A stretch of 64,000 nt of DNA from Tubulanus polymorphus (GCF_964204645.1 NC_134031.1:12092088-12156087), one strand, 5' to 3'; positions 31,841 to 62,245 are shown, counted from the stretch's first letter. Numbers and translations are program-made. The notes: a model not told the origin generated them from the sequence alone.

Positions 31841-32126
31841 TATTTGGTATCAATGATGTCATAACTCATATCAAAAATATTGCATATTTTAATGAAACAA
31901 CATTTGATTATGAAACAACAATAAATAAAGAAACTTTTAATGTAGAAAAGATGATTTAATTAGAAATTCTTTAAGATTTTATGAATTAGATGAAGGTTTT
32001 ATTATCGATGATATTAAAAAAATAATAACTGAAACGTATAAAAATGAAACTAATAATGATATAAATGTTGATTATAACAAAAATAAAAAAAATATTTTGA
32101 AGATTGTAAATTCTTTTTCTTAATAA

Positions 32127-33110: not shown

Positions 33111-33131
33111 ATTAATTTTTTTATTATATAA

Positions 33132-33682
33132 ATGGTGGATGGTTTTCCAAAAGATTTTCAATATAATAAATCAATTAAATATAATATTCCAGCAATAGAT
33201 TTTAATAAAAATATCACATATAGAAATGAAGTTTTAAATTCCTTAATTAATTTCGATTTTTATGTTACTGAAACTAATAATTTTAATGTAAAGATGGAAA
33301 ATATATTTCATATGTATTAAATTAATTTTAAAAAATTGATAGATGAAAAACAATGGTTATTAAAATCTAATATGAAATATTGGCTGAACCAATTAAATTT
33401 TGCAGTTTATTGTGCAACAACAGGTTGTGGAATTAGTTGAAATGATCATTTAAATAATTCTAAATATAAATTAATTCAACGTTTATTTATATTTCATACC
33501 TATTTTCAAATAAGATTAATATTATATGAATTAGAGACCCTGTCCTTTACCAGGATCTAGATATTTTAAAGAATGAGATAATGATATTAATTTATCAAAG
33601 TTTTATAAAGTTTGTAATAAATTTTATATAAATATAAATAATTCTGATTTTGGAACATTAAGATCAATTCCTTGTCCTGAAA
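33132..33682 (+). pseudogene. QLNFAVYCATTGCG-family gene remnant (copy A), cut by a LINE
   Basis: Colinear with 50545-51100; homology stops at the LINE 3' end. Confidence 0.75.
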
Positions 33683-38775: not shown

Positions 38776-40077
38776 GCGCATGCGTTAATCATAATTATAT
38801 ATTCATTCTATAAATTCTGTAAAATAGAAACAACACATGCGTTACATGCGTCACATGCGGCCATTTATGGCCGGTTTTGCTTAATGCGCATGCGCTAATC
38901 ATAATAGAAACGACTGAACATAAAAATTCACCAATCAGATTTACACAATACATTATACAAGTTGGTCAGTCGTTTCTTCCAATACATCATTTGATTTCTA
39001 TAAATACACTTTATAATTACAAACATTTTTTCAATTGCTGGTAAATATTTAACTACATCAACAAATGTTAAACTTAATCATTGGAGTCTTAATGTTTTTG
39101 AAATTCTTATATAGTTTCTTCGTCAATCTTTTGGTGATTCTTGTGTTTCTTGTGCTAATTTCTATTGGTTCGATATCCATTGCTGTTGATTCCTCAGTCA
39201 GAAAGAGTATCTTGAGTTTCTCTATCACTTCTTGATGCGTATGGCGTTTTATTAAACTAAAAGATATTAGCGGCAACTCTAGCCATCTAAAAGATATACT
39301 AAATACACTTAAATATATCTTAAGGTTTCATATTTAATAGCCCTAATAACTACAAAAAACAGTACTTACATTTAGATTTAGAATTGTAAACTATAAACTC
39401 CTAATTTCGTTTCGTAAGATAGAATATCCTGAGCACAATGTTACAGCGTATGTTCATTTCTTGCCACGTCATCTGGTTCCGGTTCTAGAGTGTTCTCTGC
39501 ACGTTTGTAATATTATGAGTCATAATGTCTCGGCGTCATAGTAACGGCTGTAACAGCTGTGAATTTATAGATTTATTCCATAGCTCTGTACATGGAATGT
39601 ATATAGGTTCAAATAGAATCATGTTCTAGTATAAACATCGGATCCTTGATATCAAATTCCTCAACGTATTGTTCATTATTTGGATCATTATTCCATAATT
39701 CAATAAATTTCTTTGCCTTTGTTAACTGTTCTGAATATAACTGTAAATATTCTAGTTTCAATTTATTCTCTAAATGTGTTTTAGTTTTATTGTGTCTTGC
39801 TTTTTGGGATTTATCTATATTGATATTACATGTTGGGCAGTAGTACTTATTTGCTTCCATTTTAATACTAAATTTTTTATTAAAATTGATTTTAGAAGTT
39901 ATTCATTTATATTTTATTCATATATATGAATATTTTAAGAGTAATAGGGAATATGTTGTTTCATATCAAAGGTTGTAAGGGCTAGTGAGTAAAAAATGAA
40001 AAATATGAAAATAATAATAATTTCTATTTGAATTAGGAGTGAAACTCATATAAAATGAAAAATAAATTCGACTGTGC
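38283..40077 (-). mobile_element. Right-end fragment of a third Polinton-like copy (C)
   Basis: Colinear with B 59000-61680: terminus-like agtaataggg..tttcatatcaaaggt at 39940-39975, ZnF/HNH-tail chimera, leader intron, VVKYLP gene, repeat array, MEPEQPQ gene start. Confidence 0.75.
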
Positions 40078-42269: not shown

Positions 42270-42385
42270 AGACGATGAATTAGTTAATTCAAGAAAAGAA
42301 TAAGAACAATTAAGGTTAGATAGAGATAATAAAGTTATTGAAGAAATTGAATTTTAAATAAGAACTGCATATTTAGAAAAGAGAA

Positions 42386-43238
42386 AGTTTATTTATCAGC
42401 TTATATAAAACTAACTGGTCATGATAATAATTATGTCGTTGATAATGTTGGAAGATATTTAATTAGAAAATTAATTATAAAGATTGGACCAGAAACAGTT
42501 TTCTCATTAGATGATTATAATTTATTTACGCATTATAACGATTTATGGTTAACAAAATAAAATAGAAATAATATGATATTTCAAGGAATTCAATCCTTAA
42601 ATCAAAATAAATTAAGATCTGAAGCTACGATCTGATACGGTAACCGATGAAAATATTGCTTACACAATTCAAACTAAATACAATCAAGGATGTTCATTAT
42701 TATATGCGTAAATTGATAAATTTAAAACTGTAACTATTAATGCAAATGATGAAATAATTAATGAGAATATTAACTTCCCAAGAAGATCTATTAAAGGTAT
42801 ATTGGTATTTTTTTCCATTGCAACATATTCTGATGGTGCAATAAAAGTTGATAATTATTGTAATCCTGAAATATCAAAAGTTGAAATAACTATCGAAGGT
42901 ATAGCAAATCAAATATTTTGCCAAGGAATGAGAATGATTGATCAATGGGTAGAAATTAAAAAACATTTTATGAATGAAAAAATGAAATCATCTGAAGATT
43001 GTAATATTAATCAAATTGATTATTATACCGGCAATAAATATGCATTATTGTTAGATTTTAGAACGACAGAGGATAACTTATTAAATGGTTCTGGGATAAA
43101 TTTACAAAATACAAAAGATGGAAAACAATTATTCATGAAAAAGAAAAGAGGAGGTTTAAATTATTAAATGCATATTTATATTATATCTGACGCGCAACTG
43201 AATATTATAAATTCTCAATTAGATAGTAGTCAATATTA
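42386..43238 (+). pseudogene. Major capsid protein remnant (copy A)
   Basis: Colinear with 53515-54588, with an internal deletion and stops. Confidence 0.8.
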
Positions 43239-43269
43239 AGAATTTAAAGTTAAAATTAACGATATATAA

Positions 43270-43701
43270 ATGGGGGATAAAACAACTCCAAATACTACAG
43301 AACCCTGAGTGTTCGGTTGCTTATGCTTCTGCAAAAAATATATGGCGCCAAGTAAAACAAGAAAAACTAAATAAGACAATCCCACAGAATTTAATTAAAT
43401 ATAAAGATATAAATGATTTTATGTTAGAACAATCAACATATACAACACATACACAAATTGTTAGAAAATATAAAACTCGTAAAACTATGGTAAGTTATGT
43501 AGATTAACAGTAGCAGGGAGATTTAATTGATATGAAAAATCTTAAAAAAGACAATAATGATTATTGATGGATATTAAATATAATTGATATTTTTAGTCGT
43601 TATGTATGGAGCTTCCCACTTTATAGAAAAGATGCTGCACAAACATCAAATGTTTTAAGAAAATTTCATTCGGGTGGTAGACTAAAACCAGAAAAAATAC
43701 A
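43270..43701 (+). pseudogene. int: RVE integrase of copy A, 5' half (continues at 61756-62245)
   Basis: NPECSVAY..., QGDLIDMKN, WILNIIDIFSRY, KPEKIQ, then interrupted by copy B. Confidence 0.85.
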
Positions 43702-43999
43702 AGTAATAGGGGTAATAGGCTTTCATATCAAAGGTCGAGAGGTCGAGAAAGTAAAAAAATTCAACCTTTGATATGAAAGCCTATTACCCCTATTACTCTT
43801 AAAATATTCATATACATGAATAACATTTAAATTGACAGATTAGTCAATATAAAAGTGTAAGCTCTTATAGAATAGATATATAGATATATTTTAAACATTA
43901 TTTCAATATTTATATTTGTATGAGTTAGATTTTTTTACATTAAAAGTGTTAGTAAAGTGTGATTGAAATAATTCATATTTAAATCATTGAACTTCTAAA
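43702..43999 (+). repeat. Left TIR with terminal hairpin (arms 43702-43738 / 43761-43797)
   Basis: Reverse complement of 61403-61749 except for a deleted hairpin tip. Confidence 0.9.
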
Positions 44000-44029
44000 A
44001 TCAATTAAAAAAAAAAATTTAGTATTAAA

Positions 44030-47000
44030 ATGGAAGCAAATAAGTACTACTGTCCAACATGTAATATCAATATAGATAAATCCCAAAAATCAAGACACAA
44101 TAAAACTCAAACACATTTAGAGAATAAATTGAAATTAGAATATGAAGATGATATATTAGAAACTAAATTAGATGAATTAAAGAATGAAAAAGAAACATAC
44201 AAATGTGATACATGTAATCTATCATTCAGTGATAAAAGATATTATAATGAACATTTAAAATCTAAAAGTCATATTAGAAATATGAATAATGATATTTTAG
44301 GTGAAGATTATTTTGATAAAGATAATGATAAGAAACAGAAGACAATTAAAAGCATAAAAAATAAATTAAACAATAAAAGACCATACATGGAAGATGTAAG
44401 AAAATATATTAATTTATTGGATAATAAAAAGATATAGAGATAACCGAAGCATTTAAAAGTGATATTGGTCCAGCAGCTATCGAGTTTAAATTTCATAAAG
44501 GAAAAACATTAGAAGAAAATAAAAAACATTTAGAAAATATGAAAGAAATAATAAAAATAATAACTGATGTTGAATATCCTAAAATAAGTATATCTTCTAA
44601 AGTTAAATTCATAAAATCTGAAGATAAACCAATATATCATATAAATTCTCATTCACAACATATTATTTCAAAACAACATATAGATGATAAATTAGATAAA
44701 TGTTATAATGAAGTAAAAACTAAAATAGAAGAGAAATATTTTGAAGGATCTGGTTTAATATTTGATGAAATAATATTTATGACTTTACATGTGTATAACA
44801 CAAAATATGATAAGTTAACGAAATCAAAACCAATAGATGAAAATAATGTATCATATTATAAAGAACCAGATATTGAAGCATCGAGTTATATTAAACTACC
44901 ATTTAAAACTAATGCTGTTATAAATGTACAAAATGAAGATGATAAATGTTTTCTATGGGCTATAATTAGTTGCTTACATCCAACAGAAGATATTACACAT
45001 AGTTTTAGATTAACTCATTATAAACCATTTGAAAATAATTATAAGATAGATAAGTATCCTGTTATAATTATAAACATCCCAAAAATAGAAAGAGATAATA
45101 ATATAAAGATAAATGTATTTGATTTAATCAAATTACCAAATACAAAAGGTAATAATATAAAACATTATCCATTAGAACCTTTATATCTATCAAAAGATTA
45201 TGATTCAAATGATGTTATAGATATATTATATTATGAGAATCATTATATGTGGATTAAACAAATAGATTTATTCTTTAGAACAGAAAGTGATCACCATAAT
45301 AAAATATATCTTTGTAGAAAATGTTTACATAAATTCAGTAATGAAAGTACATTATTAAATCATAAACAATTATGTGAAAAAGAAAGAAATTAAATTCTAA
45401 TGAAAATGATTTTTCAGAGGAACCGCCAAAAACAAATACAATTAAAAAGATTCATCAATCAGCTGCAGCTTTCGGGTTATATATAAAATCTGATTATCCA
45501 CAAGTAATTGAAAGTGAATATTATCATTATAGAAATGAAAATGTTATCAATCATTTTTGTGACTTATTAATTGAACATGAAATAAGATTTAGTAAATTAT
45601 TGAATACAAATATAGAAATTATAATGACAGAAGAAGATAAAGAAGCATTTGAGTTTGCAGATAAATGTTATTATTGTGAAAAGATATTTAATTATAAAGA
45701 TAAAAAAATAAGAGACCATGATCATTTGAATGGAAAGTTTAGAGGCGCTGCGCATGAGAATTGTAACTTACAAGCTAAGAAAATTAACTTTGTACCAGTT
45801 ATATTTCATAATCTATCAGGATATGATGCACATTTATTCATCAAACAGTTATGTCATAAAATAGAAGAAATTAATAATGAAATAGAAAGATTAAATTCAA
45901 ATAGATCAAAAGATAAAATACCAACTTATAAATTTAAAATGTTAGCTAAAACATCTGAGAATTATATATCATTCCAATTTGGTTGCCTAAGATTTATAGA
46001 TTCATATAGATTTTTAAATAGTTCATTAGATAACTTATCAAAATCATTAGTTGATGATGAATTAAAAATATTAAAGCAACACTACCCAAATAATGATGAT
46101 TTCCAATTAATGAGATATAAAGGCGCAATTCCATATTCTTTCTATAAAAATCATAATGATTTTAACATAACTGAATTATTGAAAGAACAATTCTATGATG
46201 AATTAAAAAATGAATATGTTAAAGATGAAGTATATAATAGAACATTGAATATTTGGAATCATTTCAAAATAGAAAATCATGGGAAATTAGTAGATTTATA
46301 TTTAAAATCAGATGCATTATTATTAACCGATATATTTGAAAGGTTTAGAGATGTAAACCTAAAATATTTTAATATTGATCCTTGTTATTGTTATTCAAGT
46401 CCAGGATTAACATGGGATTGTGGTTTAAAATTTACAGATATAAAAATGGATTTGTTAACAAATATAGATCAATTATTATTATTTGAAAAATCTATAAGAG
46501 GAGGAGTTTCAGGTGTATTAGGTGATAGATATTTCAAAGTAAATGATAATCCTGGATATAAATTATTATATATAGATGCAAATAATTTGTATGGTTGGGC
46601 AATGATGGAACCACAACCTTATGGAGTATTTGAAATAAGTGAAGTTTTACAACGTGAAAATAATGATAAATTTGATTGGAAGAAAAGAATTCTAGATATT
46701 GCAGATGATTCAGATACTGGTTACTTCTTTGTTGTAGATTTAGAATATCCTGAACATATTAAATTTAAATCTAGAAATCTAGCTTACTGTCCCGAAAACT
46801 GTAACTCATGAAGAATTATCAAATTACCAAAAAAAGAATTAAACCCGAAAATGATATTCATACAGAAAAGTTAATGGTAACTCAGGAAGATAAATATAAT
46901 TTAGAATGTTGAAGTTTTATCTAAATCAAGGAATGATTCTAAAAAAAGTACATAGATATATTTCATTCAATCAATCTAAATGGTTAGAAAAATATATAGA

Positions 47001-47892
47001 TTTTAACACCAAACAGAGAAGTAAAGCTAAAACTGATTTCGGAAAAGATTTCTTCAAGTTAATGAATAATGCATTCTATGGTAAGACTTGTGAAAATATT
47101 AGAAATAGAAATGATATTGAGTTAGTCAGTAATGGTAAAAGAATTAGACGTTTACAAACATATCCTAAGTTCATAGGTAACAGAATATTTGATGAAAATT
47201 TAGCTGCAGTTAAGATGAGAAGAACATCAATGAAATTTAACAAACCAATCTATGTTGGCGCTTCAGTTTTAGAATTATCAAAATTACTAATGTATGAATT
47301 CTATTATAATGTATTACAACCACTTTTTGGAGAAAAACATATATAAATCTTATATTTTGATACAGATTCTTACATATTAAAGATAAAAACTAATAACATA
47401 ACCGATGATTAAAAAACATTAAAACATCATTTTGATTTCAGTAATTATCCTAAAGATCATGAATTGTTTAGCAATGATAATAAAAAAGTTCCCGGTAAAT
47501 TCAAAGATGAATTAGGTGGCGAAGAAATGATTGAATTCATTGGTATTAGATCTAAAATGTATTCATATAAAACTAAAGAACATGAAGCTAAAAAGTTAAA
47601 AGGAATAACCAAAAGTGTAGTAGAAAAGAATATTCATTTCAAAGATTACATCAATTGTATATTCAATGAAGAAGTTAGAAAACATAAGATGAAATGTTTA
47701 AGATCTGAAGATCATGAAATGTTTATTGAAGAAATTGAAAAGGTTAGTCTAAACCCATTTGATGATAAAAGATATATTTTAGATGATGGAATTCATACAG
47801 TTGCTTATGGTTGTAATTTAGATGAATACTTAAAATTTAAAAGAGAAGAAACAAAAGAGAAGGAAATAATGAAAAGAATTCTAACGTGTTAA
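44030..47892 (+). pseudogene. polB: Protein-primed family B DNA polymerase polyprotein, split over ORFs 44030, 44539, 45600, 46906 and 47464
   Basis: Two C2H2 fingers; EGSG (terminal-protein-like); DDKCFLWA..HYMWI (OTU-like protease region, inferred); EndoVII-like CYYC..DHDH..GAAH..CN; YLKSD; motif A YIDANNLYG; motif B KLMNNAFYGK; motif C YFDTDS (~47352). Exo I region deleted relative to copy A. Confidence 0.95.
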
Positions 47893-47922
47893 TCAAATTT
47901 TAATAAAAAATATGTTATTAAA

Positions 47923-48276
47923 ATGGAGAGTAAACAAACACACAGTGAGAACAACAAATTATTTCTAGATAGAATAAAAGATACTTCAAATATCAAATCA
48001 GTAGATTATAAATTTAAGAAGTCAAAAGAATTAATAATCCATAAGAAATATCTAATTACAAATATTGATACAGTTACTAACAAATATGGAGATAAATTAG
48101 TTATACACTTAGAATATGAAGGATTAAAAGGAAATACATATAAATTCAGAACATATTTACCGGATAGATTTCATAGATTATCAAGTGAAGATCTAGAAGA
48201 ATTATGTTGTGGTGATTTCTATTTCGTATACAAAGGTAAGAATGAAAAAGGGCACCATGAAATAGATTTCGAATAA
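47923..48276 (+). CDS. Hypothetical 117-aa protein, possibly a small beta-rich ssDNA-binding type
   Basis: Intact ORF directly after pPolB; NKYGDKLVIHL..YLPDRF pattern; function is a guess. Confidence 0.7.
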   Translation: MESKQTHSENNKLFLDRIKDTSNIKSVDYKFKKSKELIIHKKYLITNIDTVTNKYGDKLVIHLEYEGLKGNTYKFRTYLPDRFHRLSSEDLEELCCGDFYFVYKGKNEKGHHEIDFE

Positions 48277-48293
48277 GAAAATATGTAAAATAA

Positions 48294-49041
48294 ATGGTAG
48301 AATTAAAAGAATACAGAATATTTGTTGATTCTAGAAAACTTACAAATTATAAATCACATAATTTACTAGTTCAATTAGATAGAGAATTTAAGAATTGTGT
48401 TGATTTAAAATTAGTTAATATAAGTTTATGTAATTCTTTTCATAATATATCGAATAAAAGTCTTGATCATTTAGCTTTTAAAATTCATGTTAGAAATTTG
48501 AATAAATGGTTTCATCTTTATCTAAAACCAGGATTATATAATTTAGAAACATTAGCGCAAGAAATTAATAGAAGAGCTCGTTTAAAAATGGGCGCAGCTG
48601 CTAGATTTGAAATTAAATTTATCAAAAGTGATAGTTCCAATAAAATAAGAATAAAGTTAACTAATGAACAACATAGATTTCTAGTAAGAAAACCTTTAGC
48701 TAAACTGTTTGGAATTCTCCTGGATAGAGATTATTCAAACTTATACAAATTTAATGACTTTTACACATTTTTATATTTATTGCAATTTAATCAATCCTAC
48801 AAAAACATTTGAAGCAACTAAAGATACAATTTGTAATTCTAGTATATTAAATATTTTACCATTAAAAAATGTCAAACAATTTGGAACTCAAATCAATTAT
48901 AATTTAACTGAATGTGATTTTAAACCTTGTATTCCACATTTCAATAATTTTAAATTAGAAATAAGAAATCATAATGGTTATTTAATTGATTTGAATAACT
49001 TTCCTGTGATATATGAATTAGTTATAGTGTGTAGAGAGTAA
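48294..49041 (+). pseudogene. Minor capsid (penton) protein, one frameshift near 48720
   Basis: IFVDS..., CNSFHNI, LKPGLYN, FYIYCNLI, LEIRNHNGYLIDLNNFP..ELVI: pattern typical of Polinton/virophage single jelly-roll penton. Confidence 0.75.
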
Positions 49042-49057
49042 TTTTTTCATTATATAA

Positions 49058-49636
49058 ATGAATATAACTGTTGGACCGAGTATATGTTTTGGGTTTGATT
49101 TTAAACGTGAGAAAGAAATGAAATTCAACATTTCTGATGTAATTACACATATTAAAAATATTGCATTTTCTAATGAAACAACATTTGAGTATGAAAAGAC
49201 AATAGATAAAGAAACTTTAAATGTAGAAAAGATTACTAATTTAATTAGAGAATCTTTAAGATTTTATGAATTAGATGAAGATTTTATCATCGATGATATT
49301 AAAAAAATAATAATTGAAATATATACAAATGAAACTAGTAATGAAATAAATGTTGAATTAATCATCACTAAGATAACTAAATATTTTGATGATAGTAATT
49401 TTGTTGATAAATATATGAGTGATAATAAGTGGATAATAACTGGATTATATAATGGAGCATTACTATCAGTTGGAACTGTTGGTTATTCAATGGTATTAAA
49501 AAAAGTATTCAAAATGGGAAGTGTTAATGTTGATAGATTTGATATAAATGATATCTTAAAATTAACGTTAGCAGTTACTTTATCTAATTTAACTATTGAT
49601 TATTTGGAAAAACAAAAATATATTCCTCCCATATAA
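49058..49636 (+). CDS. Hypothetical protein with a hydrophobic C-terminal domain; probably a fusion of two genes (second start 49415)
   Basis: The C-terminal part is a separate ORF in copy A (32127); TAAAT sits at 49408, just before the internal ATG. Confidence 0.7.
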   Translation: MNITVGPSICFGFDFKREKEMKFNISDVITHIKNIAFSNETTFEYEKTIDKETLNVEKITNLIRESLRFYELDEDFIIDDIKKIIIEIYTNETSNEINVELIITKITKYFDDSNFVDKYMSDNKWIITGLYNGALLSVGTVGYSMVLKKVFKMGSVNVDRFDINDILKLTLAVTLSNLTIDYLEKQKYIPPI

Positions 49637-49660
49637 ATGCATATTTTTTTTGCTAAATAA

Positions 49661-50081
49661 ATGGCTTCTGCAATTATAACTATTATAGGATCGGCAATTG
49701 TTAACGCTTTAGCATTTACTGGTGGTGGTTATTTATTCAAGCATATTGATAAAAGTAGTTCATTAGGAGAACAAAGAAGACATAACTTAGCATTAGAGAA
49801 ATACAATGAAGCAGCAGAAGAATATAGAGAAAAGAGAAAACTATATGGATTATATTAACAAGGAATTATATGATCAGAAGATTTCACATAGAGATTTTCA
49901 ATCAGTTGATGATGCAATGAGTTTATATAACGCGGTAACCAATAAAGAAAAATTACATCTATACAAACCTAAATTATCAGATTATTATACCCCAAGTAAA
50001 GAACAACAGAAATATGAAATAATATGGATTTTAGGTGGAACTGTTATTGTTATATTTGTTGCTTATAAGTTTACTAATTAG
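49661..50081 (+). pseudogene. Small membrane protein (N- and C-terminal hydrophobic segments), one frameshift
   Basis: MASAIITIIGSAIVNALAFTGG..EQRRHNLALE joined to ..YEIIWILGGTVIVIFVAYK. Confidence 0.7.
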
Positions 50082-50102
50082 TAATTTTTTTTTGCTAAAT
50101 AA

Positions 50103-50528
50103 ATGGATGATAATATTGATATTATTCCTCATGATATAAATAAAACTAAATTAAAAATATATTTAGAAAAACAAATATTAGAATTTGAAAGTGACTTAAA
50201 GATAAAAAAGAAAAAATATTTAAAATCTAAAATTATATATTATCTTATTATTAGTGGTTCAGTTACAATTAGTTCTGTAATAACATTTTTAGCAATATTC
50301 AGTCCATTAACACCTTTAGCTATATCAATTGGTGTATTAGGATTAAGTTCAAGTGTTTTAACTGGTATAAGTTCAAAATTAAATATAAAAAGTAATAAAG
50401 AAAAAATTAAAACTAATATAAAAGAAATTAATAAATTAAAAAATACACTAGATTATATAATAAGTTTAAATGGCCATATAACAGTTGAAGAACAAGATAA
50501 ATTATTAAAAGAATTAATAAATTATTAA
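50103..50528 (+). CDS. Two-TM membrane protein
   Basis: Intact 141-aa ORF; hydrophobic hairpin flanked by Lys-rich coiled segments; conserved in copy A. Confidence 0.75.
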   Translation: MDDNIDIIPHDINKTKLKIYLEKQILEFESDLKIKKKKYLKSKIIYYLIISGSVTISSVITFLAIFSPLTPLAISIGVLGLSSSVLTGISSKLNIKSNKEKIKTNIKEINKLKNTLDYIISLNGHITVEEQDKLLKELINY

Positions 50529-50544
50529 TTTTTTAATTATATAA

Positions 50545-51920
50545 ATGGTAGATAGTTTTCCAAAAGCTTTCCAATATGATAAATCAATTAAATATAATAT
50601 TCCAGCAATAGATTTTAATAAAGATATTACATATAGAAATGAAGTTTTAGATTCATTAACTAATTTAGAAATTTATGTTACTGAAACTAATAATTTTAAT
50701 GCAAAGATGGAAAATATATTTCGTGTATATTTAATTAATTTTAAAAAATTGAAAGATGAAAAACTATTGTTATTAAAATCTAATACCAAGTATTGGCAGA
50801 ACCAATTAAATTTTGCTGTTTATTGTGCAACAACAGGTTGTGGAATTAGTTGGAATGATCATTTGAATAATTCTAAATATAAATTAATTCAAAGTTTATT
50901 TAGATTTCATACATACTTTCAAATCAGAATAATATTAAATGAATTAGAGTGCGCTTTACCAGGATCTAGATATTTTAAAGAATTAGATAATAATATTAAT
51001 TTATCAAAGTTTTATAAAATTTGTAATGAATTTGATATAGATATAAATAATTCTGATTTTAGAACAAAAATTGGAACAATAAGATCACTTCCTTGCCCTA
51101 AAAAGATTGCAGAATATTGTGGACTTCCCATACCATCTAATAGCTTTTATAATATCTATAATAATAAATTAGGTTATGCTAAAATAGAAACAAAGGATTT
51201 AGAATTTCAATAAATTACCGAAATTTTATGATCATTTAAAACAAGAAAACAATAATGGTTGGGTTTATTTTAGAAAATAATGAAGGTTTTACAAAATCAG
51301 GTATACAAAGAATAACTCAATCTAGTAGAACTTATTTGATATGTATTCTAGGATCACAGGTTGAAACAAGATCCCCAATAATTGGAAATTTAAATACATC
51401 ATTTGATGCACAGAAACAATTCAAAGTATTATTTGAAGATTCAATTCATAATGATAAAAATAGATCGATTCCAGAAAACATTGTAAGATATCAAAATTAT
51501 CTAGATAAATCACATATTAGACTAAATTATTGTATAGGCCCTAATCTATTAATTATTTCTAATGATTTAGTATTAAAGATGGGAAACATAATTGGTTATA
51601 ATAATCTAATTAAAACTGCAACAATAAATAATTCATTTGGATTAAATGATATAAATAAAAAGATTATTACTGCTCCAAAATTAATGGAAGGTGAAAAAAA
51701 TAAAAAACATATTCAATCAACTGAAACTAAAACTAATAATATTAAATTAAATAATGATTCTAAAATAGAAGATTACAATACATCAGAAGATATAAAAACT
51801 GATAATATTCAACATGATATAATTAAACTAAATGATGATAATAAATCCCATGAAAATACTAAATTAGCTATAACTTGTATAGGAATTGTAATCGGAGGAA
51901 TATTATATTTTAAATTTTAA
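50545..51920 (+). pseudogene. Conserved unknown protein (WQNQLNFAVYCATTGCG) with C-terminal TM anchor, split near 51213-51255
   Basis: Two consecutive ORFs; only the first has the TAAATG start; ends LAITCIGIVIGGILYFKF; homolog in copy A. Confidence 0.65.
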
Positions 51921-51935
51921 TTTTTTATTATGTAA

Positions 51936-53318
51936 ATGGATGATGATAATATTGATGATGATGATGATGAATCAGCATATAATTCTAATTTAGCAGATAG
52001 TGGTTCTGAAGGCCCATCAACAGATGAATTTGATAGAACTAGATCGAGAATAAATCCTGAAAATGAAAATCAAGGTTTATTAAAGCAAAATTTAGAATAT
52101 AATGAATATATTTATAATTTCAAACATGTATTTGAAAATTCTGGATATAATATAAATGCTAGAGGCGCCAGACTTTTAGTACAAGAATTAAAGTTTTTAA
52201 ATGGTGAATATTATTATCGTTTGAAAGATGATTCGGATTATTATATTGATATCTCTTATAAAAAATAAGAAAAAATATTAGCAGAACTTTGCTTAAGTTA
52301 GACCTATCTAGAATTAAAAGAATAAGAAATAGTAATGAAGTAGAAAATGCAACACAAGAAGAAAGAAAGAGTATTTAAACAAAGAATTAATAAGTTATTT
52401 GAAACAATCGATAATAATTTAGAACCAAAAAGAAACTCTGAACAGAATAAAACTTCCAAAACTAGTAAACTTAAATCAAATAAAGTTCCAATTGAAAAAC
52501 TTTTACCAAATGGATTACTTGATGCAACAGATCAAGAATTAGAAGATTTAGATATATTTTCTGATAAAGCAATTAGAGAAATTATTAGTATAAGAAATGA
52601 AGCTGATAAAATTGCGCATGATAAAAGTATAAGAGATTTTAAAATTAGAACTTTGGAAAAAGACAGAACTGATAAAATTAAAGAAATAGAACAATTGAAA
52701 TTAGATAGAGATAATAAAGTTTTTGAAGAAATCGAATTTAAAAAAAGAAATGCGTATTTAGAAAAAGAAAAAGATGATTTAGAATATAACATAGAATTAC
52801 AAAAAGAAGAAATTAAATTATTATTAAAATCATATGATTATAATATTAATAGATTAAAAGTTATTTTTAAAGAGTTAATAATAAAACCAGATTCTAAAAT
52901 ATCATTAAAAGATAGAATAAGATTATTATTTAAGTTAGAAGGTATAACAATTCTTTCAATTCTAACAGCTGTAACTATGTTATTTACAACAATAGGTTTA
53001 GCAATATCAAATGCTTTAAAATCTACTCCTACTCCCAATAAACCACATGAACCCCCAGATAATAATTCTATACAAGATAAAGTTAAGGATGGTTTAAAGA
53101 AATTAGCAAAATATTTATGGGAACTATCTAAAAAATCTGCTGCAGCATTACCAGGAATTATTGCATCAATTGTTGGTTTCATATTGAAATCTGCAGGAAA
53201 CATTATTAACTTTGCTGCTGAACATATTATTTTATTTTTAATTACAGTTGTAAGTGCAATTATTTTTGGGTTAGTAAACATGATATCAAAAATATCAAGT
53301 AAACATGATCAAAAATAA
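51936..53318 (+). pseudogene. Acidic / coiled-coil protein with C-terminal hydrophobic helices, split near 52268-52347
   Basis: Long E/K-rich coil followed by EGITILSILTAVTML..., ALPGIIASIVGFIL, HIILFLITVVSAIIFG. Confidence 0.7.
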
Positions 53319-53342
53319 ATAATTAATTTTTTTGTTAAATAA

Positions 53343-54588
53343 ATGAGTGGGAGTTATATCAATCCTTCTAAGAATCATAGAATATCTAATGCTATTGAAG
53401 CAGAAAGATCACATCATATAATTACTCATAACCCTTCTAATATTAATCCTGATGAAACTTTATATGTTAGAATTCCTCGATTAACACAAAATACTTTTTA
53501 TCTTCCAAATAGTATTTATTTATCAGCTGATATAAAATTAACCGGTAATAATAATAATTATGTTGTTGATAATGTTGGAAGATATTTGATTAAAAAATTA
53601 ACAATAAAGATTGGCCCAGAAACAGTTTTCTCATTAGATGATTATAATTTATTTATGCATTATAAAGATTTATGGTTAACTAAAGAAAACAGAAATAATA
53701 TGATATTTCAAGGAATCCAATCAGAAAACCAAAATAAATGAAGATCAGAAGCACATAATGCAATATCTACTAATGCTATAGATAAATTGATAAAAAGTAT
53801 GTACGGAAGCAAATATAAAATTCCATTAGACTTTGAATTGATAAATAATAATGCGCCTTTATATAAATACGCAATTCAAGAAGACGTTATATTCGAAATA
53901 ACATTTGCTCCTGTTAATGAAATTGTAATATCTAGCGTTAATAAAGATATGAGTTATAAATTATCGAATATATGTTTAGAATATGATACAGTAACTGATG
54001 AAAATATTTCAAGTATAATTCAAACTAAATACAATCAAGGATTTTCATTATTATATGATTATATTGATAAATTTAAAACTGTAACTATCAATGCAAATGA
54101 TGAAATAATTAATGAGAATATTAACTTCCCAAGAAGATCTATTAAAGGTATATTAATATTTTTTACCATTGCAACATATACTAATGGCGCAATCAATGTT
54201 GATAATTATTATAATCCTGAAATAACAAAAGTAGAAATAACTATCGAAGGAATAGCAAATAAAATATTTTGTCAAGGAATGAGAATGATTGATCAATGGC
54301 CAGAAATTAGAAAACATTTTATGAATGAAAAAGTAAAATCATCTGAAAATTGTAATATTAATCAAATTGATTATTATACCGGTAATAAATATGCATTATG
54401 GTTACATTTTAGAACAACAGAGGATAATTCATTACATGGTTCTGGGAAAAAATTACAAAATACAAAAGATGGAATACAATTATTCATGACAAAGAATAAA
54501 GGAATCAAAAATTTTAAAATGCACATTTATATTATATCTGACGCGCAATTAAATATTGTAAATTCTCAATTAAATAGTGTTATGTATA
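53343..54588 (+). pseudogene. Major capsid protein (predicted double jelly-roll)
   Basis: ~415 codons, beta-rich (NPSNINPDETLYVRIP, YKIPLDFEL, YKLSNICLEYDTV, RSIKGILIFF); in-frame TGA at 53739 (TTA in copy A); native stop near 54588 lost through a 1-bp deletion relative to copy A; fold inferred. Confidence 0.75.
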
Positions 54589-54622
54589 AGAATTTTAACT
54601 TTAATAAAAATTTATATGATAA

Positions 54623-55444
54623 ATGGAAGGAGGTAAAGTATATACACATATTCCATACATCGATACACATGAAAATAATGATGGTTTATATTATGTATTA
54701 CCTTGTAATATCGCTTTGATATTTGATCCTATTTTCAAAATTTATAAAACTAAACTAATAGAAATCGATAATAATAAAAGTGGTGTCGTTGATAATTTAA
54801 GTAATGTAATTGATAATAATGTAATACCTTCTACATCTAATAATGTAATACCTTCTACATCTAATAATGTAATACCTTCTACATCAAATAATGAAATGAT
54901 ATTAAATATTAGTGAAAAAAGAAATTATTGTGATTATTGTAAAGGTGAATTTTCAAACGCTCCATCAAATTGGAATAAACATATGAATACAAGGGTACAT
55001 ATTACTAATGTTATAGAACGTGTTGGTTTAAGAGAATTTATAGAACACCCATTTAGATATGTTACAAAGTTTGTTTCAAATAAAAAAGTAAATGGTAAAG
55101 AATTATATGAAGATTTATTATTAGCAACACCTAACAAAGATGAATTAGATTTAACCGATGCTAATAAAATATTAGGATCAAACATTGTAAATGAAATATT
55201 AGGAGCAAACACTAATAAAGATAATAATGAAAATATAGTTACAGATATTGATAATAAAGATTCTATGAAACATAAAGTAGAAAATAATGATAAATTTGAT
55301 TGGATGAATAAGCATAACAATGAAACAACTATTGATGATGCGGTAAAAAGGGTGAAGAATAAGTATAAAAATAATGAAGAATTAGAAGATTCGATAGAGC
55401 ATTTGAATAAATTGTTAGGGGGGTCTGATAGTGAAAGTGATTAA
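54623..55444 (+). CDS. Hypothetical protein with a C2H2 zinc finger and three NNVIPSTS repeats
   Basis: Intact 273-aa ORF; CDYC..WNKHMNTRVH; 24-bp tandem repeat at ~54815-54890. Confidence 0.75.
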   Translation: MEGGKVYTHIPYIDTHENNDGLYYVLPCNIALIFDPIFKIYKTKLIEIDNNKSGVVDNLSNVIDNNVIPSTSNNVIPSTSNNVIPSTSNNEMILNISEKRNYCDYCKGEFSNAPSNWNKHMNTRVHITNVIERVGLREFIEHPFRYVTKFVSNKKVNGKELYEDLLLATPNKDELDLTDANKILGSNIVNEILGANTNKDNNENIVTDIDNKDSMKHKVENNDKFDWMNKHNNETTIDDAVKRVKNKYKNNEELEDSIEHLNKLLGGSDSESD

Positions 55445-55826
55445 GATATTAATTATATTTAACTCAAAAAGTAATAAAGGTTGAAAATTGTAAAAATAAT
55501 ATTTATTTAAAAAAAGGGGGTTTTAAGTATTTAAGGTATTTAAGGTATCTAATACATATCTAATACAATCTAATACAATCTAATACATAAAATATCTTAT
55601 TTTATAAACTGATATTCACATGGAAATCGAAACCTCAGTAACAATAAATAACCTTTATTATTTTCAAACTTATTCATATATTCGTTGAAAAAATAAAAAT
55701 AAATTGGTTGAAAATTGTATAAATAATATTTATTTTAAAAAGGGGGTTTTAAGTATTTAAGGTATCTAATAGGGTCAGGTATTAGGGTATCTAATAGGGT
55801 ATCTAATACATAGGTATACAAATAGT

Positions 55827-56436
55827 TATTTTATAAATTTATATTCATAGGGAAATTGTAGTCTCAGTGATAATTTGAACCTTTATTATTCTTTAATTTA
55901 TTCATATATTCATCATGTAATTTAGTAGGCATAATTTGATTTTCTTCCAATGATTGTTGCATAGATTTTCTATCTTTATTGTAGAATAAAACTAGAAATC
56001 TTATATTCTCCCTAAGGTCTTTAACAATTGAATTATATTTTTGATTTAAAACCCATGTTGTTATCCCAAAATGTCTCCCAGAGAAAGCTAAGTAACATAA
56101 CTCACTTTCTCTCACTTTTCAATCATGTAAATTTGCGCAATCATCTACAATGAATAATGTATTTGATTCTTTATAGATATCAATTGCTATTTTAATACAA
56201 TTATCTAAATTTTCTTTTACTGTTTTAGGATCTAATATAATAAACTTTTTTATCTTAACTATATCTCTATTATATGTTTTATTCATTTCATAAGTAGGAC
56301 AGAATAATATAATATTATCAAAATGATTCTTATAAATAGTTTCTAACAAATCTAATATGAAATGTGTTTTACCACAGTTGGTTACACCAGTAACTAACAT
56401 ATTATGCGGTTCAAATATAAATAAATCTTTATTCAT
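55827..56436 (-). pseudogene. A32/FtsK-HerA-type genome packaging ATPase
   Basis: Walker A GVTNCGKT, Walker B FIVDD, GRHFGIT..NQKY..LRENI; in-frame TGA at 56119 and a frameshift near the 3' end. Confidence 0.9.
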
Positions 56437-57520
56437 TTATTCTTTTAATTTTACTAGATAAAATCCATTCTTTAAATTTATCATCATATCCTTTATATTT
56501 CACCAAAGAATACTTTTTTCCTTTAAGAGTTTTTGATTTCAATACTTTTTCTATTTTGTATTCTATTTCATCTGGATTTGGTACAAGTGATAATTCTTGT
56601 TCATAGAAATAACCTAATATTTCTTCATCTTTTAAATCTTCTAATTTATAAACAAATGGTTTAGTTAATATTATCTTTTTAATCTTGAATATTTCTTCTG
56701 TAAAATTTGGGGTATAACCTTTATAAAAGGTTTTTCTATATTTAGATATTCTTACGTGTTGTCCAATTTTAAATTTAGGTTCACCGAAATCATGTGTAAC
56801 AAATGCTCCATATAAATTATTCCATACTATTTCTGAATTATCTTCTTTTCTAGCTTGTATAGGTTTCATATTTATAGAACTATGTTTAGAATTGTTATAA
56901 CCTTTCACTAAATCATCTAACACATCGATATATTTATATGTTTCATTAGCAGTAAAATATTTCCACATTCTAGTTTTCAATGTTTTATTAAATCTTTCTA
57001 TAATAGATGCTTTTTTATCTGAATGTGTTGAAAAATAATCTACATCGTTATCAGATAATAGTTTTTTGAAATGTTTGTTATAAAATTCCTTACCTTCATC
57101 AAATTGTATCTTATCTGGAATAGCTTCTTAAAATATTGATTTAAAAACATTTGTCACTTCTATTCCAGTTTTATTTTTGATTGGAATTGACCATGCGTAT
57201 CTACTGAATATGTCTATAACATTTAATATCCAGAAATATCCTTTGTTGTATTCCTCTAAGTTCTTCATGTCAATTAAATCTGCTTGCCATTGTTGATCGC
57301 TATATGAAACCATAACTTTTCTTGTTAAATAAGTTTTATCCATTTTCTTATGGATTTGGTATGTTGGTTGATTTTGTAACCATAATCTTAGTTCACTATA
57401 TTTTGTATTACCATTTTCATTATCAGATTTAATTTTATTCCATAATTCTGAAACGTTAGGATATGATACTTCACTTTCTGGGTTGTAATATAAATCTCTT
57501 AAATATTGTTCTTTTTTCAT
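56429..57520 (-). pseudogene. int: Retroviral-type (RVE) integrase with C-terminal chromodomain
   Basis: WQADL, IDIFSRYAW, IQFDEGKEF, IIERFNKTLK (D-D-E triad); chromodomain YKIEKVL..LVKYKGY..EWI; one in-frame TAA at 57128. Confidence 0.92.
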
Positions 57521-57526
57521 CTTATT

Positions 57527-57895
57527 TTAATCCATTAAAAATAATTTAGATTTAGTTTCAATGACTTTATGATTTGACTTATTTTCTGGTATAATAGGTT
57601 TATTATCATTGGAATCATCTTTATCATCAGATTTATACTTATATTTATATATTACACCGGATAATATAATAATTGTGATTAACCCAATTGTAATATATAA
57701 GTAATTATTTCTTCCACTATTAGAAGAATCAGATGGATTATTATTTGAATTAATATCAGATAAAGTCTGTGATTCATTTATATCAGTTAATTTCTTTTTC
57801 TTAGCTTTTTTTAATTCTGAAGATCTTTTACCTAATTCTCTTGACCATTTAATTTGTTTCTCGGATCTAGGCTTTTTCTTAACGCCATCACTCAT
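57527..57895 (-). CDS. Small basic protein with one TM segment
   Basis: Intact ORF; Lys/Arg-rich N-terminus; YLYITIGLITIIILSGVIY. Confidence 0.7.
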   Translation of the reverse strand: MSDGVKKKPRSEKQIKWSRELGKRSSELKKAKKKKLTDINESQTLSDINSNNNPSDSSNSGRNNYLYITIGLITIIILSGVIYKYKYKSDDKDDSNDNKPIIPENKSNHKVIETKSKLFLMD

Positions 57896-58496
57896 TTATT
57901 TTAGTTAATTTTTGTTCTGATTCATTTTCTGTTTCGACGTTTGGTTGTAGTACATCAGTTTCGTTCTTACCTGATTTATATTCCATAGGCTTGATGTTCG
58001 AAAATGTTATGACACCAGTAGAAATTAATGTCATAACAGATCCTAATTGAAATGAAGCATAACCAACCCATTTTTGTAATTCAGTCATAACTAAGTAGTC
58101 ATTTTTTAAATCACTATATAATTTATTTTCATCATCAATTGGTATTAACTGGTTACATAACTTAGAATAACATTTGACAATACCATCTGAAATAGAATCA
58201 TTTATTCTAGCTAATCTTGACTCTTCATAAATCTTAAAATGTTTTATTGCTTTATCTGGTTTCATAGCATCTAATTCTTGAAAAGTAATGATCTTAGTTA
58301 AAAACTCTTTACATTTACCACTCGCAATTAGTAATTCAAAATGGTGTTTACAATATAAGTAGTATTCATAATCTATATTACAATTAACTTGAATATTATT
58401 TTCAATTTTGGTTGGAATATCCTTATTATCACTTTGACCCAAATCATCTAATGTTTTTTCAATACCAATACTATTCTTACTCGATTTCTTTGACAT
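57888..58496 (-). CDS. Hypothetical 202-aa protein with a hydrophobic C-terminal segment
   Basis: Intact ORF with T6-N7-TAAATG start context. Confidence 0.7.
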   Translation of the reverse strand: MSKKSSKNSIGIEKTLDDLGQSDNKDIPTKIENNIQVNCNIDYEYYLYCKHHFELLIASGKCKEFLTKIITFQELDAMKPDKAIKHFKIYEESRLARINDSISDGIVKCYSKLCNQLIPIDDENKLYSDLKNDYLVMTELQKWVGYASFQLGSVMTLISTGVITFSNIKPMEYKSGKNETDVLQPNVETENESEQKLTKINE

Positions 58497-58796
58497 TTAT
58501 ATTAGAGAAAAAAGCGAAAAAAAAGTATTATAAAATGATACCAGCATCTCTTTGGGTTAATACTAGTTAGTTAAAGGTAAAGAATTTTAGTATTAGTTAT
58601 TGTTTTTTTAGTATTTTTTATTTGCGATATAAAGTATTCTCTTTTGAAAAGAATTGTAAAAGAAAGTATTAAAAATTAAAATAGAAATAATGGCTAGTTG
58701 AAGGGATGTAATTTTTAATATATTTTATTTGAATTCTATTTGATATCTCACTACTTTTGTTTATCTATTAGGAGCAGTAATTATAACTGTCCAGAT

Positions 58797-59010
58797 AAGT
58801 CATTTCGGATCCTTGATATCAAATTCCTCAACGTATTGTTCATTATTTGGATCATTGTTCCATTGATCAATAAATTTCTTTGCCTTTGTTAACTGTTCTA
58901 TATATAACTGTTAATCTAGTTTATTAGATTTTATTTTATTTTCTTTCTTTTCAAGAGGTCCTAAATTTTTCCAATTCCAAATAAGTTTTTTATTGTATTC
59001 ATCATTCCTT
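58797..59010 (-). pseudogene. 3' remnant of a second HNH/EndoVII-like gene
   Basis: Translates DEYNKKLIWNWKNLGPLEKKENKIKSNKLD*QLYIEQLTKAK, paralogous to 60703-61026. Confidence 0.7.
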
Positions 59011-59223
59011 TCAATTTATAAATCAAATTTTTATTAAAATTGATTAACATTTTAGAATCCTCTTCCATTTCTTCGACTAACGTCATCCTTTTTCAATCCT
59101 CGCTGCTTTTGATAAGTCATTTCGGATCCTCGATAATAAATCCTCAACTGAAAATCAATTCAACGAAACGACTGGTGGAAATATTATTTCATAAACATAT
59201 ATATTTATTATTAAAATTTTAGC

Positions 59224-59540
59224 GATCGATAATAGAACAATGGAGAACAATAGAAAAGCGGTCCAATCGGACCGGTTATTGCGCAATACTTAGTTAACAG
59301 TAATCAATCAATACAGAACAACCGCCGCCATTAACAACGATCAATAATAGAACAATGGAGAACAATAGAAAAGCGGTCCAATCGGACCGGTTATTGCGCA
59401 ATACTTAGTTAACAGTAATCAATCAATACAGAACAACCGCCGCCATTAACAACGATCAATAATAGAACAATGGAGAACAATAGAAAAGCGGTCCAATCGG
59501 ACCGGTTATTGCGCAATACTTAGTTAACAGTAATCAATAC
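59224..59540. repeat. 115-bp tandem repeat, ~2.8 copies, palindrome-rich
   Basis: aatagaacaatggagaac at 59231, 59346 and 59461; each unit has cggtcc-aatc-ggaccg and tattgcgcaata. Confidence 0.95.
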
Positions 59541-59607
59541 AATATTAAAACAGATATATACAATCGAGATTACATTTTTTGATATCTAAGACCTTCAGTG
59601 TTATAAT

Positions 59608-60336
59608 TTATAATTTTGTCCAGAATTCTTTAATTACTGGATTGTTTCCAATCATTTCTTCAATTTCTGGTAAATATCTGACTACTTCACTAAATGCTAA
59701 TCCTAATATTTTGAATTTTTCATATTTTATTAATCTACCTACTCTTCTCAGTTTTCTTTCAAAACCGGCACTGATATCTATGTTCTTTTTAACCCACAGC
59801 CCCCAAGAAATCCCCTCAGTTTCTTTATCAAACATTGAAAACCCTATATTTAGATAACCCCCGAAAATGATGTGGTCCCATAGGTGATTTGCTTTTCTAT
59901 TTAATATGGTTTTATAACTTTTTTTAAAGATATCAGTAATTTCAGCAAATGAAATAACTTCTACACTTTGTATTTCCGAAAAGTTTAAATGATCTGTGTC
60001 AATGATTAATTTAGATTTTAAAAACTCGTTCAACTCTTCTCCACTCATTTTCTTAGTTTTCGATTCTTTGAGTCCCAACAGCAATTTAAGTCGCGTTGCT
60101 GGTCATTTTGGTAATTGTAGTTCGCGCGGTAATTGTTTATTATGTATTACATCACTCAGAATTTTCACCATTTCTTGATGATAGTCCAAATGTTCTTGCA
60201 ATTTTTGTGAAGTTTGTTCGTCAATTACGAGAGTTTCATCCTCCATTTCTATTGATTCCTGAGTTTCACTATCCAGCAGCAATCGTTCCTCACCCGTTGG
60301 TTGGCTTAGAATTTCTGGTTGATCTCTGTATTCCAT
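59608..60336 (-). pseudogene. Hypothetical gene (ORFs 60103-60336 and 59608-60084) preceded by a leader intron
   Basis: Adjacent same-strand ORFs; diverged homolog in copy C (VVKYLPAIE vs VVRYLPEIE). Confidence 0.6.
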
Positions 60337-60702
60337 TTTAATCTAAAAGATGTCGTGGAAATGAATTACTGTACTTAAATATGTTTAAAGGTTTCCCTAC
60401 TTCATAATAACTACAAAAAACGGTACTTACATTTAGATTTAGAACTGTAAACTGTGTTTTGAGAGAGAATATCCAATACGTACTATGTATGTGAAAGTTG
60501 ATTTCTAACTGCCGACGTGGCGCACGTTCGACCAAACTAATTATTTCTGCATGTTTGCCTGGATTGTAACAGATGTTCTTTATGATGAAGTTAATTAATT
60601 CTTTAGAATTGAAAACAAGATATATTTGGCAACATATGTTTTCGTAGTAAGCAAAAGCTATGTATTATAGACATACAAAGCTCAAATAGAATTGCCAGCT
60701 TT

Positions 60703-61372
60703 CTAACCACTGATTAAAACCTCAGAATGCGGTTGATTCTGTGAAATACTATTCCATAATTCAACAAATGTCTTTGCTTCATCCAGTTGATCTAAATATA
60801 ATTTCATATCTAGTTTGTTAGATTTAATTATATTTTCTTTCTTTTCTAAAGGCCTTAAATTTCTCCAGTTCCAGATTAGCTTCTTATTATAATCATCACT
60901 CATGTCAAATTTAGAAATCGGCAACACGTGATCAATATGAAAGTATTCACCATAATTATCTATATTCATTTTATCATCGAATTGATATATTATCCATGAT
61001 TTTAAGAATTCATCTGAACAACCCAATAAATTAGATAAGTGTTTCTGAATGTATTTCTTTGTTGAATAATTGTGTTAATCTAGTCCTTAAGCATTGTTTC
61101 AATCTAAAATTAAGATCTGTTTTATATCTTTCTCTCATATATTCTGCCATATAATAATTATAATGTTCTATATTATCTTCTCGATATTGTTTGGTATATA
61201 GTTGAAAACAAGTTTTACAGCAATATTGAAAACCATCTTTGCTAATCTTACGCTTATTAAATTCTGTTATAGCTAATTTATCTACTTCACATTTAGAACA
61301 CTTCTTGTAGTATATGTTTATAACACCAGTGTTATTTTTAATATTGATAGTTTGTGGTTGTTCTGATTCCAT
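60703..61372 (-). pseudogene. Zinc-ribbon + HNH/EndoVII-like endonuclease of a type common in large DNA viruses; one frameshift near 61030
   Basis: KKCSKC..DGFQYCCKTC; HIDHVLP..WNWRNLRPL..EN..KSNK. Confidence 0.8.
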
Positions 61373-61402
61373 TTATTATACATATTTTTTTACTAAATTA
61401 AA

Positions 61403-61749
61403 TTTAGAAGTTCAATGATTTAAATATGAATTATTTCAATCACACTTTACTAACACTTTTAATGTTTAAAAATCTAACTCATACAAATATGAATATTGAA
61501 ATAATGTTTAAAATATATCTATATATCTATTCTATAAGAGCTCACACTTTTATTTTGAATAATCTGTCAATTTAAATGTTATTCATGTATATGAATATTT
61601 TAAGAGTAATAGGCTTTCATATCAAAGGTCGAGAGGTCGAGAAAGTAAAAAAATAAAAAATAAATTCTCGCACACTCGAATTTATTTTTTATTTTTTTAC
61701 TTTCTCGACCTCTCGACCTTCGGTATGAAAGCCTATTACCCCTATTACT
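61403..61749 (-). repeat. Right TIR with terminal hairpin (62-bp arms 61606-61667 / 61678-61739, 10-nt loop)
   Basis: Direct base-pairing check: 2 mismatches in the stem. Confidence 0.92.
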
Positions 61750-61755
61750 AGTACA

Positions 61756-62245
61756 ATTTGATGATGGAAAAGAATTTGATAATTCATTTGTTCATGGGCT
61801 ATTAGATTATCATCATATTAAATATTTTTCAACAAAATCGGATAAAAAAGCAGCAGTTGTTGAACGATTTAATAGAACATTAAGAACAAGAATGTCAAAA
61901 TATTCAAAAAATTCACAGCAAATAATACGTATAAATGGATTGATATTTTACCAAAATTGATAGAAGTTTATAATGATTATTATCCTTCTTCTATTGGAAT
62001 GAAACCTATTGATGCTAGAAATCCCGAAAATGCTTAAATTGTTTGGAATAATTTATATGGGGCATTTCTTGTAGATGATTTTGGTGAACCTAAATTTAAA
62101 GTTTGTCAAAATGTTAGAATTTCTAAGTATAAAAACTAAATTACTTAATTTAACTTATTAATTTTACTAGAGAAATATATAAGATAAAAAAAGTAATAAC
62201 AACAAAACCATATGTCTATAAATTAGAATATTTGAAAGGCTGAAT
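61756..62245 (+). pseudogene. int: RVE integrase of copy A, 3' half
   Basis: Resumes FDDGKEFDN..KKAAVVERFNRTLRTRM..GEPKFKV, in frame with KPEKIQ once copy B and one TSD copy are removed. Confidence 0.85.

Follow-up and report, generated by a model that had tools for sequence, protein, structure and literature searches.

Integrated virophages carry promoter motifs that match those of their helper virus (PMC8547959; 10.1101/2025.10.09.676808; as described in the accessible parts of both sources). In the late promoters of vaccinia virus, as published, TAAAT(G) overlaps the start codon, a core that contains T lies 5-7 bp (PMC5294985) or about 6 nt (PMC12722222) away from TAAAT, and roughly ten bases upstream a T is conserved, while intermediate promoters carry TAAA, prefer A and lack that conserved T (PMC11980589). 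The initiator of vaccinia G8R is TAAAAT and poly(A) leaders arise via slippage (PMC12722222), and an entomopoxvirus late gene starts with TAAATG (PMC3061580). Here we analyzed a stretch of 64,000 nucleotides from Tubulanus polymorphus (GCF_964204645.1 NC_134031.1:12092088-12156087), referred to as the window, and within it a Polinton/Maverick element, designated copy B, at positions 43702-61749 (18,048 bp, 24% GC). TAAATG at its gene starts is a real motif under selection; its strict form is specific to the lineage, and its layout resembles that of a poxvirus post-replicative promoter.

An original prediction, made from the sequence of the window, had listed 12 gene starts of copy B in which TAA directly abuts ATG, and all 12 are of this form. 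The four other starts also read as it had stated, namely TAAAATG at 44030, 47923 and 60336 and TAAGATG at 57520, and so do the six TAAATG sites assigned to the older copies A and C (32127, 32371, 32738 and 33132, all four in copy A and preceded by T-rich tracts, 38144, and 43270, which is the integrase start of copy C). TAAATG is found at 12 of 17 copy B starts, compared to 43 of 691 other ATGs of the same element (p=7e-11), and outside a GC-richer insert 14 of 15 starts carry TAAATG or TAAAATG. Enrichment over an AT-matched background was confirmed as well: among ATGs with at least 85% AT upstream the motif occurs at 4 of 178, in a comparison that used 18 starts and included position 44539. 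That position was rejected as a gene start, as the protein-primed family B DNA polymerase (pPolB) starts at 44030, which aligns with the N-terminus of the intact homologue P0156. The claim that the TAA is generally not the stop codon of the preceding gene holds too, since it is the upstream stop at none of the 12 starts (at most 20 in-frame codons are open upstream). The nine gaps between same-strand genes on the + strand measure 15-32 bases. Furthermore, the stated lack of an RNA polymerase agrees with a Pfam scan of 28 copy B open reading frames (ORFs), in which RNA polymerase, capping enzyme and adenain all gave no family match.

The same signal is found in relatives from metagenome contigs, L002 and L003, with capsids that are about 76% identical or less close. 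All 7 L002 starts read TAAATG, compared to 11 of 255 other ATGs, and so do all 14 L003 starts, including that of a deoxynucleoside kinase (dNK) cargo gene, compared to 23 of 386 other ATGs. The TAA is the upstream stop codon at only one of the 14 L003 starts, and in L002 two divergent genes each begin with TAAATG while their start codons are only 19 bases apart. Twenty Polinton-like contigs, found via related polymerases, served as controls, and one mechanical ORF rule was applied to them and to the clade (copy B, L002 and L003) alike. Under this rule 31 of 45 clade starts read TAAATG, compared to 8 of 190 in the controls (p=1e-20); the ten controls of at most 32.5% GC gave 7 of 92, and one control of 22% GC gave 1 of 10. 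AT bias is excluded because the controls, including those of low GC, stay this far below the clade. Selection of the motif as a signal, as opposed to AT bias or stop-start coupling, is thus well supported. The comparison with canonical Mavericks gave a divided answer: strict TAAATG is specific to the clade, but a looser TAAA near the ATG occurs in controls with canonical capsids as well.

The signal is bipartite. Nine bases before TAAAT a T is present at 12/12 starts in copy B, 7/7 in L002 and 13/14 in L003 (32/33 in total), whereas TAAATG sites that are not starts have it in 17/43, 5/11 and 8/23 cases (30/77). This T lies 12 bases before the ATG, a distance outside the usual reach of the Kozak context. 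Upstream of it stands either a run of T or a run of A. In all 22 measurable T-class starts the last run of at least four Ts ends 5-8 bases before TAAAT, in 16 of these at 5-7. The T-class comprises the capsid gene, four predicted membrane proteins and a conserved 202-aa gene, the A-class pPolB, the packaging ATPase, the putative penton gene and the gene at 54623. Nine of 14 genes present in at least two elements retain their class, and the ATPase is A-class throughout. A conserved A at position -15 is in part an artifact, because upstream stop codons supply an A and several gaps are 15-17 bases long.

Set against the published descriptions, the T-class sequences appear to match poxvirus promoters well, those of the A-class approximately. 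The pPolB start, TAAAATG, has the same initiator form as vaccinia G8R, and the A-class ATPase parallels vaccinia A32L, which is an intermediate gene. The fixed T is common to both classes here, whereas vaccinia intermediate promoters are without it in the accessible descriptions. Two further sequence statistics were set aside. Depletion of AATAAA as a test for cytoplasmic transcription (131 observed versus 134 expected on clade coding strands) was dropped as uninformative, because the 20 controls, canonical Mavericks included, are likewise undepleted. TTTTTVT, which resembles the poxvirus early stop signal, is scarce on clade coding strands (7 versus 22.5 expected) and was not used, since runs of T and of A are depleted overall and some of the controls have low counts as well.

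By analogy with these systems, we give about an even chance (roughly 0.5) to the following reading: the genes of copy B, a decayed member of an integrating Polinton-type lineage, likely have poxvirus-type post-replicative promoters, and a pox-like large DNA virus infecting the same cell would provide the RNA polymerase for transcription of intact members in the cytoplasm. Transcription would start on the As of TAAAT. The T at -3 is easiest to understand if it lies outside the mRNA, because T is disfavored there: it occurs at 1 of 55 starts in the canonical-type controls (L030, L031, L032 and L041) versus 31 of 45 in the clade. A templated two-base leader is poor for scanning ribosomes; slippage of the polymerase at TAAAT would add a leader of poly(A), the mechanism used by vaccinia and by the cytoplasmic pGKL elements of yeast. 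Lacking an RNA polymerase gene, the element would depend on a helper in the cytoplasm, in the same way as mavirus-like elements. The A-run genes (pPolB, ATPase, putative penton) would be switched on before the T-run genes (capsid and four predicted membrane proteins). A membrane may be part of the particle, and loss of the maturation protease together with gain of membrane proteins would fit the assembly of such a particle in the cytoplasm. Finally, copies would enter the host genome through the integrase, as happens with mavirus. From the pox-like transcription proposed originally, the selected signal stands, and the upstream layout makes the resemblance to poxvirus post-replicative promoters closer than that proposal had stated; helper dependence is what we infer from them; the additional idea of an antiviral element gained no evidence, and copy B, with most of its genes broken, is dead.

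A wider reading is put forward tentatively. A widespread animal Polinton lineage, lacking adenain and rich in membrane proteins, could represent germline-integrated virophages of poxviruses or their relatives, which would have copied both post-replicative promoter classes of the helper and so obtained an intermediate-then-late cascade without any transcription gene of their own. The motif would then predict an undiscovered pox-like virus of the host. The lineage bears on how animal Mavericks express their capsid genes and on whether they are autonomous viruses or helper-dependent. If the reading holds, integrated virophage-like elements would range from protists to animal germlines, and promoter layout could serve to deduce which class of helper an endogenous element uses.

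Several observations weigh against poxvirus-type transcription. Five of the 14 shared genes change class, and the class rule was fixed after inspection of the data. The capsid gene is T-class here, while vaccinia D13L is an intermediate gene. Judged from the published wording, the invariant T lies 9 instead of 10 bases before TAAAT, and the A-run lies 10-14 bases up compared to 15-19 in the accessible part of a review. The step from motif to helper is one of analogy, and IMG/VR, scanned for the strict T-run motif, revealed no helper virus: the scan gave 12 scattered single matches, of which five records were tested and were without enrichment and one is an ordinary phage. Among distant relatives with the same capsid and membrane module and 45% GC (L005, L007 and L008), exact TAAATG is found at only 3 of 46 mechanical starts; when L006 and L009 are included, 11 of 24 starts picked by hand have TAAA close to the ATG.

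The remaining objections also favor the main rival, according to which the element is an autonomous nuclear Maverick: host RNA polymerase II (Pol II) would read a compact AT-rich promoter that is common in Mavericks, and in this clade the distance between TAAA and ATG would be fixed at its minimum. We regard this as somewhat unlikely, yet it can draw on three lines of evidence. First, TAAA lies within 12 bases before the ATG at 10/15 starts in L030, 11/13 in L031, 15/15 in L032 and 10/11 in L034, nearly always 4-10 bases away at variable spacing and often with T-rich DNA upstream, and L032 carries the upstream T at 11 of 15 starts. L030-L032 have the canonical PF21738 capsid, L030 and L032 also an adenain motif. 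Thus the looser form is not unique to the clade; either ordinary Mavericks use helpers too, or host Pol II reads such promoters. This layout in L030, L031, L032 and L034 merits a survey of its own. Second, copy number is high. In an independent DNA run (1,934 million bases), 1,315 reads run off at the left terminus of copy B into unrelated flanks (agreement 0.34), and interior depth is ~630-fold, with read coverage spanning the left 8 kb of the element only. This depth corresponds to an estimated ~330 copies per Gb of host genome at 85% identity (genome size is not known). Depth and reads diverging at the terminus indicate many insertion sites, and hundreds of integrated copies are likely, a number easier to explain by nuclear self-amplification. 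A single run, presumed to be RNA, gave 4 short records on the stretch, which speaks neither for nor against transcription. Third, the observed/expected ratio of CpG lies at 0.41-0.62 for copy B and L001-L003, compared to 0.92 in L004 and 0.79 in the host flank; depletion in four of five clade sequences fits long nuclear residence. Copy number and CpG depletion together point to a substantial nuclear life. In contrast, host transcription has difficulty with the T at -3, which 31 of 45 clade starts carry and canonical-type controls avoid. In addition, Pol II transcripts start downstream of a TATA-like box, but capsid homologues begin at the very ATG that abuts the motif, so that such a box would put the Pol II start downstream. 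A start within TAAAT, finally, would leave a leader of ~two bases.

A divergent transcription factor encoded by the element itself, TBP-like for example, might instead bring the host polymerase to the motif. Conserved ORFs without assigned function could provide a candidate (47923, 49058, 54623, 58496 and 60048). However, Pfam, PHROGs and PDB sequence searches of five proteins or alignments gave no TBP, TFIIB or late-factor match, at the level of sequence and with small ORFs not folded, and we consider this explanation improbable.

Even less can be said for the motif as a by-product of gene packing, in which an upstream stop codon, a poly(A) signal (AATAAA) or a T-run terminator overlaps the next start. 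About half of the starts do read AATAAATG (A two bases before TAAAT in 13/26), the A fifteen bases up often belongs to an upstream stop codon, one L003 start uses the upstream stop, and the scarcity of TTTTTVT mentioned above would agree with it. However, the motif also stands before genes without an upstream neighbor on the same strand (61372 and both divergent genes of L002), and the T-run holds its spacing from the ATG downstream of it, whereas the gap back to the preceding stop codon ranges from 3 to 107 bases. We therefore hold packing to be very improbable. Chance, which the 76% AT of the element might invite, is refuted by the enrichment within the element (p=7e-11), the AT-matched ATGs (4/178) and the low-GC Polinton controls (7/92), and its probability is negligible.

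The gene content of copy B is that of a decayed Polinton. On the + strand it opens with pPolB (44030-47892, PF03175), which is broken into five ORFs, is 65-77% identical to P0156 and starts with an A-run TAAAATG. The same start class and form are found in a 117-aa gene (47923-48276) that is 32% identical to an L003 gene and has no Pfam or PDB match. The next gene (48294-49041, two ORFs, A-run TAAATG) gave no significant family match and is, from its size and conservation, likely the minor capsid (penton) gene. It is followed by six genes with a T-run TAAATG: a 192-aa gene (49058-49636), a conserved membrane protein predicted from hydropathy, with homology to L003 and L005 (49661-50081, two ORFs), a 141-aa predicted two-helix membrane protein with a weak SLATT-like Pfam match (50103-50528, E=0.004), a conserved protein of ~440 aa whose C-terminus is predicted to anchor it in a membrane (50545-51920, two ORFs), a conserved coiled protein predicted to have three membrane segments at its C-terminal end (51936-53318, two ORFs) and the double jelly-roll major capsid protein (53343-54590, two ORFs). 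A single-sequence fold of the 442-aa protein reached a predicted local distance difference test (pLDDT) score of only 32, and the Atlas gave no match for this protein. The last gene on this strand encodes 273 aa with a weak zinc-finger match (54623-55444, A-run TAAATG).

The genes on the - strand comprise the broken A32-type packaging ATPase (55885-56436, PF04665, A-run TAAATG), an rve integrase with chromodomain in two ORFs (56429-57520), a 122-aa predicted membrane protein (57527-57895, A-run TAAATG), the conserved 202-aa gene (57888-58496, T-run TAAATG), two ORFs of 146 and 77 aa in the GC-richer stretch (59608-60336, ~32% GC) whose starts lack the full motif, and an HNH-like endonuclease gene in two ORFs (60703-61372, A-run TAAATG), 44% identical to an L002 ORF with a weak PF01844 match. 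The integrase starts with TAAGATG, whereas L002 and copy C have TAAATG there; its PF00665 match is weak in the window fragment (E=3e-4) and above the cut-off in the intact L002 integrase (81% identical).

In total, membrane segments are predicted for five genes of copy B, three of which have counterparts in L005, a distant relative. The capsid was modeled from its intact homologue P0001 (76% identical; pLDDT 91). Giant-virus capsids match this model with template modeling (TM) scores of about 0.6-0.67, while the mavirus capsid ranked beneath them, only 43rd among the fold matches (TM 0.56). The L003 capsid has no Pfam match at E<=0.05, whereas controls match PF21738 at 1e-41 or better. Besides lacking a Pfam match to adenain, copy B and six related loci lack its catalytic motifs in all six frames, with L001-L003 being partial contigs; the same motifs were found in 8 of 20 control contigs.

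At 24% GC, copy B differs from most of the first 29 kb of the window (33-41% per kb); its flank contains reverse transcriptases of long interspersed nuclear elements (LINEs), pointing to an animal host. It is bordered by a 6-bp target-site duplication (43696-43701 and 61750-61755, both on the + strand) with 5/6 identical bases. Its terminal inverted repeats (TIRs) measure ~330-380 bp and each extends to the start codon of the terminal gene. The left one (43702-44032, + strand) reaches that of pPolB, so that the pPolB start signal is contained in the repeat, and the right one (61370-61749, - strand) reaches the HNH gene start. The first 96 bases on the left and the outer 144 bases on the right are palindromic, with 37-base arms (43702-43797) and 67-base arms (61601-61744), and may reflect a hairpin or fold-back replication intermediate. 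TIRs beginning with AG and a 6-bp target duplication are features of the Polinton/Maverick family, and copy B fits both. It is nested in the integrase gene of the older copy C, whose left part (42295-43701, + strand) includes a capsid remnant and the integrase start; integrase homology runs from 43292 to 43702 and resumes at 61751-62237. The older copy A is a remnant as well (29852-33657, + strand), comprising pPolB and four downstream genes. A 968-bp palindrome (37814-38779, 98%) combines pieces of the HNH gene with terminal sequence, both from this Maverick family, and copy B itself contains tandem direct repeats at 59223-59544 (~115-bp unit, 98-99% identical) and 55473-55911 (~225-bp unit, 79%).

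In a pPolB tree with 48 of 49 intended rows, the polymerase of copy B belongs to a distinct clade with support, which counts 15 rows and includes none of the named insect or Montipora proteins. The missing row is the L008 polymerase, whose identity to the remaining ones is only 22-27%. With 384 representatives at E<=1e-30, the capsid family is a large one, and its distant members, with 34-37% capsid identity, have kept AT-rich islands before their genes. IMG/VR scans with capsid, pPolB and ATPase returned no clade members, and phage and plasmid collections gave no match either. L005, L007 and L008 (G001), with their pPolBs of low identity, are Polinton copies with LINE-rich flanks in a bacterial metagenome-assembled genome and are probably contamination from an animal host. 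The dNK gene of L003 (L003:10340-10981) has a full T-run TAAATG start and three close homologues (60-67%), and no named viral relative, including any from poxviruses, was found. Two related pPolBs, P0167 and P0172, have precomputed PF14890 matches, P0167 also one to PF14528; these are intein and LAGLIDADG families. In the control L039 (26% GC), TCTA or TCTT precedes most starts in AT-rich DNA, resembling the late motif of Cafeteria roenbergensis virus (CroV) as given in the accessible description.

How does copy B relate to known systems? The closest match for its promoters is provided by vaccinia late and intermediate promoters and the yeast pGKL elements, which, in the accessible descriptions, share TAAAT(G) or TAAAAT over the start codon and a T-rich or A-rich core upstream. 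In contrast to copy B, both encode their own RNA polymerase, and spacing here departs from the published descriptions by between one and a few bases. Our literature search, which reached few subscription papers, found no report linking TAAAT(G) to Polintons or Mavericks.

Poxviruses and Polinton-like viruses (PLVs) have been connected before. Entomopoxvirus-associated PLVs are, like the lineage of copy B, small capsid-encoding dsDNA elements; they were proposed as poxvirus parasites, and one is integrated in a beetle chromosome. However, as far as their description is accessible, they measure ~12 kb, all have adenain, and they carry a tyrosine recombinase or no integrase, with no rve reported. 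They were physically found in occlusion bodies, whereas the poxvirus link of copy B lies in promoter layout only. In its accessible form, the main text of that paper does not mention 'promoter', 'TAAAT' or 'motif' (PMC11296320). Judged by gene content and size, these PLVs are a different lineage.

Mavirus and endogenous mavirus-like elements resemble copy B in combining pPolB and rve integrase without an RNA polymerase, in low GC relative to the host, in many integrated copies and in a common motif before nearly all genes. However, copy B differs in its animal host, its motif, the lack of a maturation protease and a capsid model nearer to giant-virus capsids. The capsid, penton, ATPase and protease module typical of virophages (Virophaviricetes) was not found here, given that no protease is present and the mavirus capsid matches with a TM of 0.56 only.

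With Polintons/Mavericks (Polintoviricetes; adintoviruses) copy B shares TIRs, the 6-bp target duplication, pPolB, the rve integrase, the A32 ATPase and the double jelly-roll capsid, and its pPolB is about 40% identical to insect and coral Polinton polymerases. Canonical Mavericks and adintoviruses differ: copy B has no detected adenain, a capsid outside PF21738 (those of L030-L032 and L041 fall inside), five predicted membrane proteins and strict TAAATG starts. According to a 2026 preprint, some recognized polintons, for example those of Nematostella, also have capsids outside the Maverick clade (10.64898/2026.10.13.758929). Copy B may be related to such polintons, because one capsid match came from the coral Oculina. 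Taken together, copy B is a Polinton by the basic definition, but belongs neither to the canonical adenain/PF21738 type nor to Virophaviricetes.

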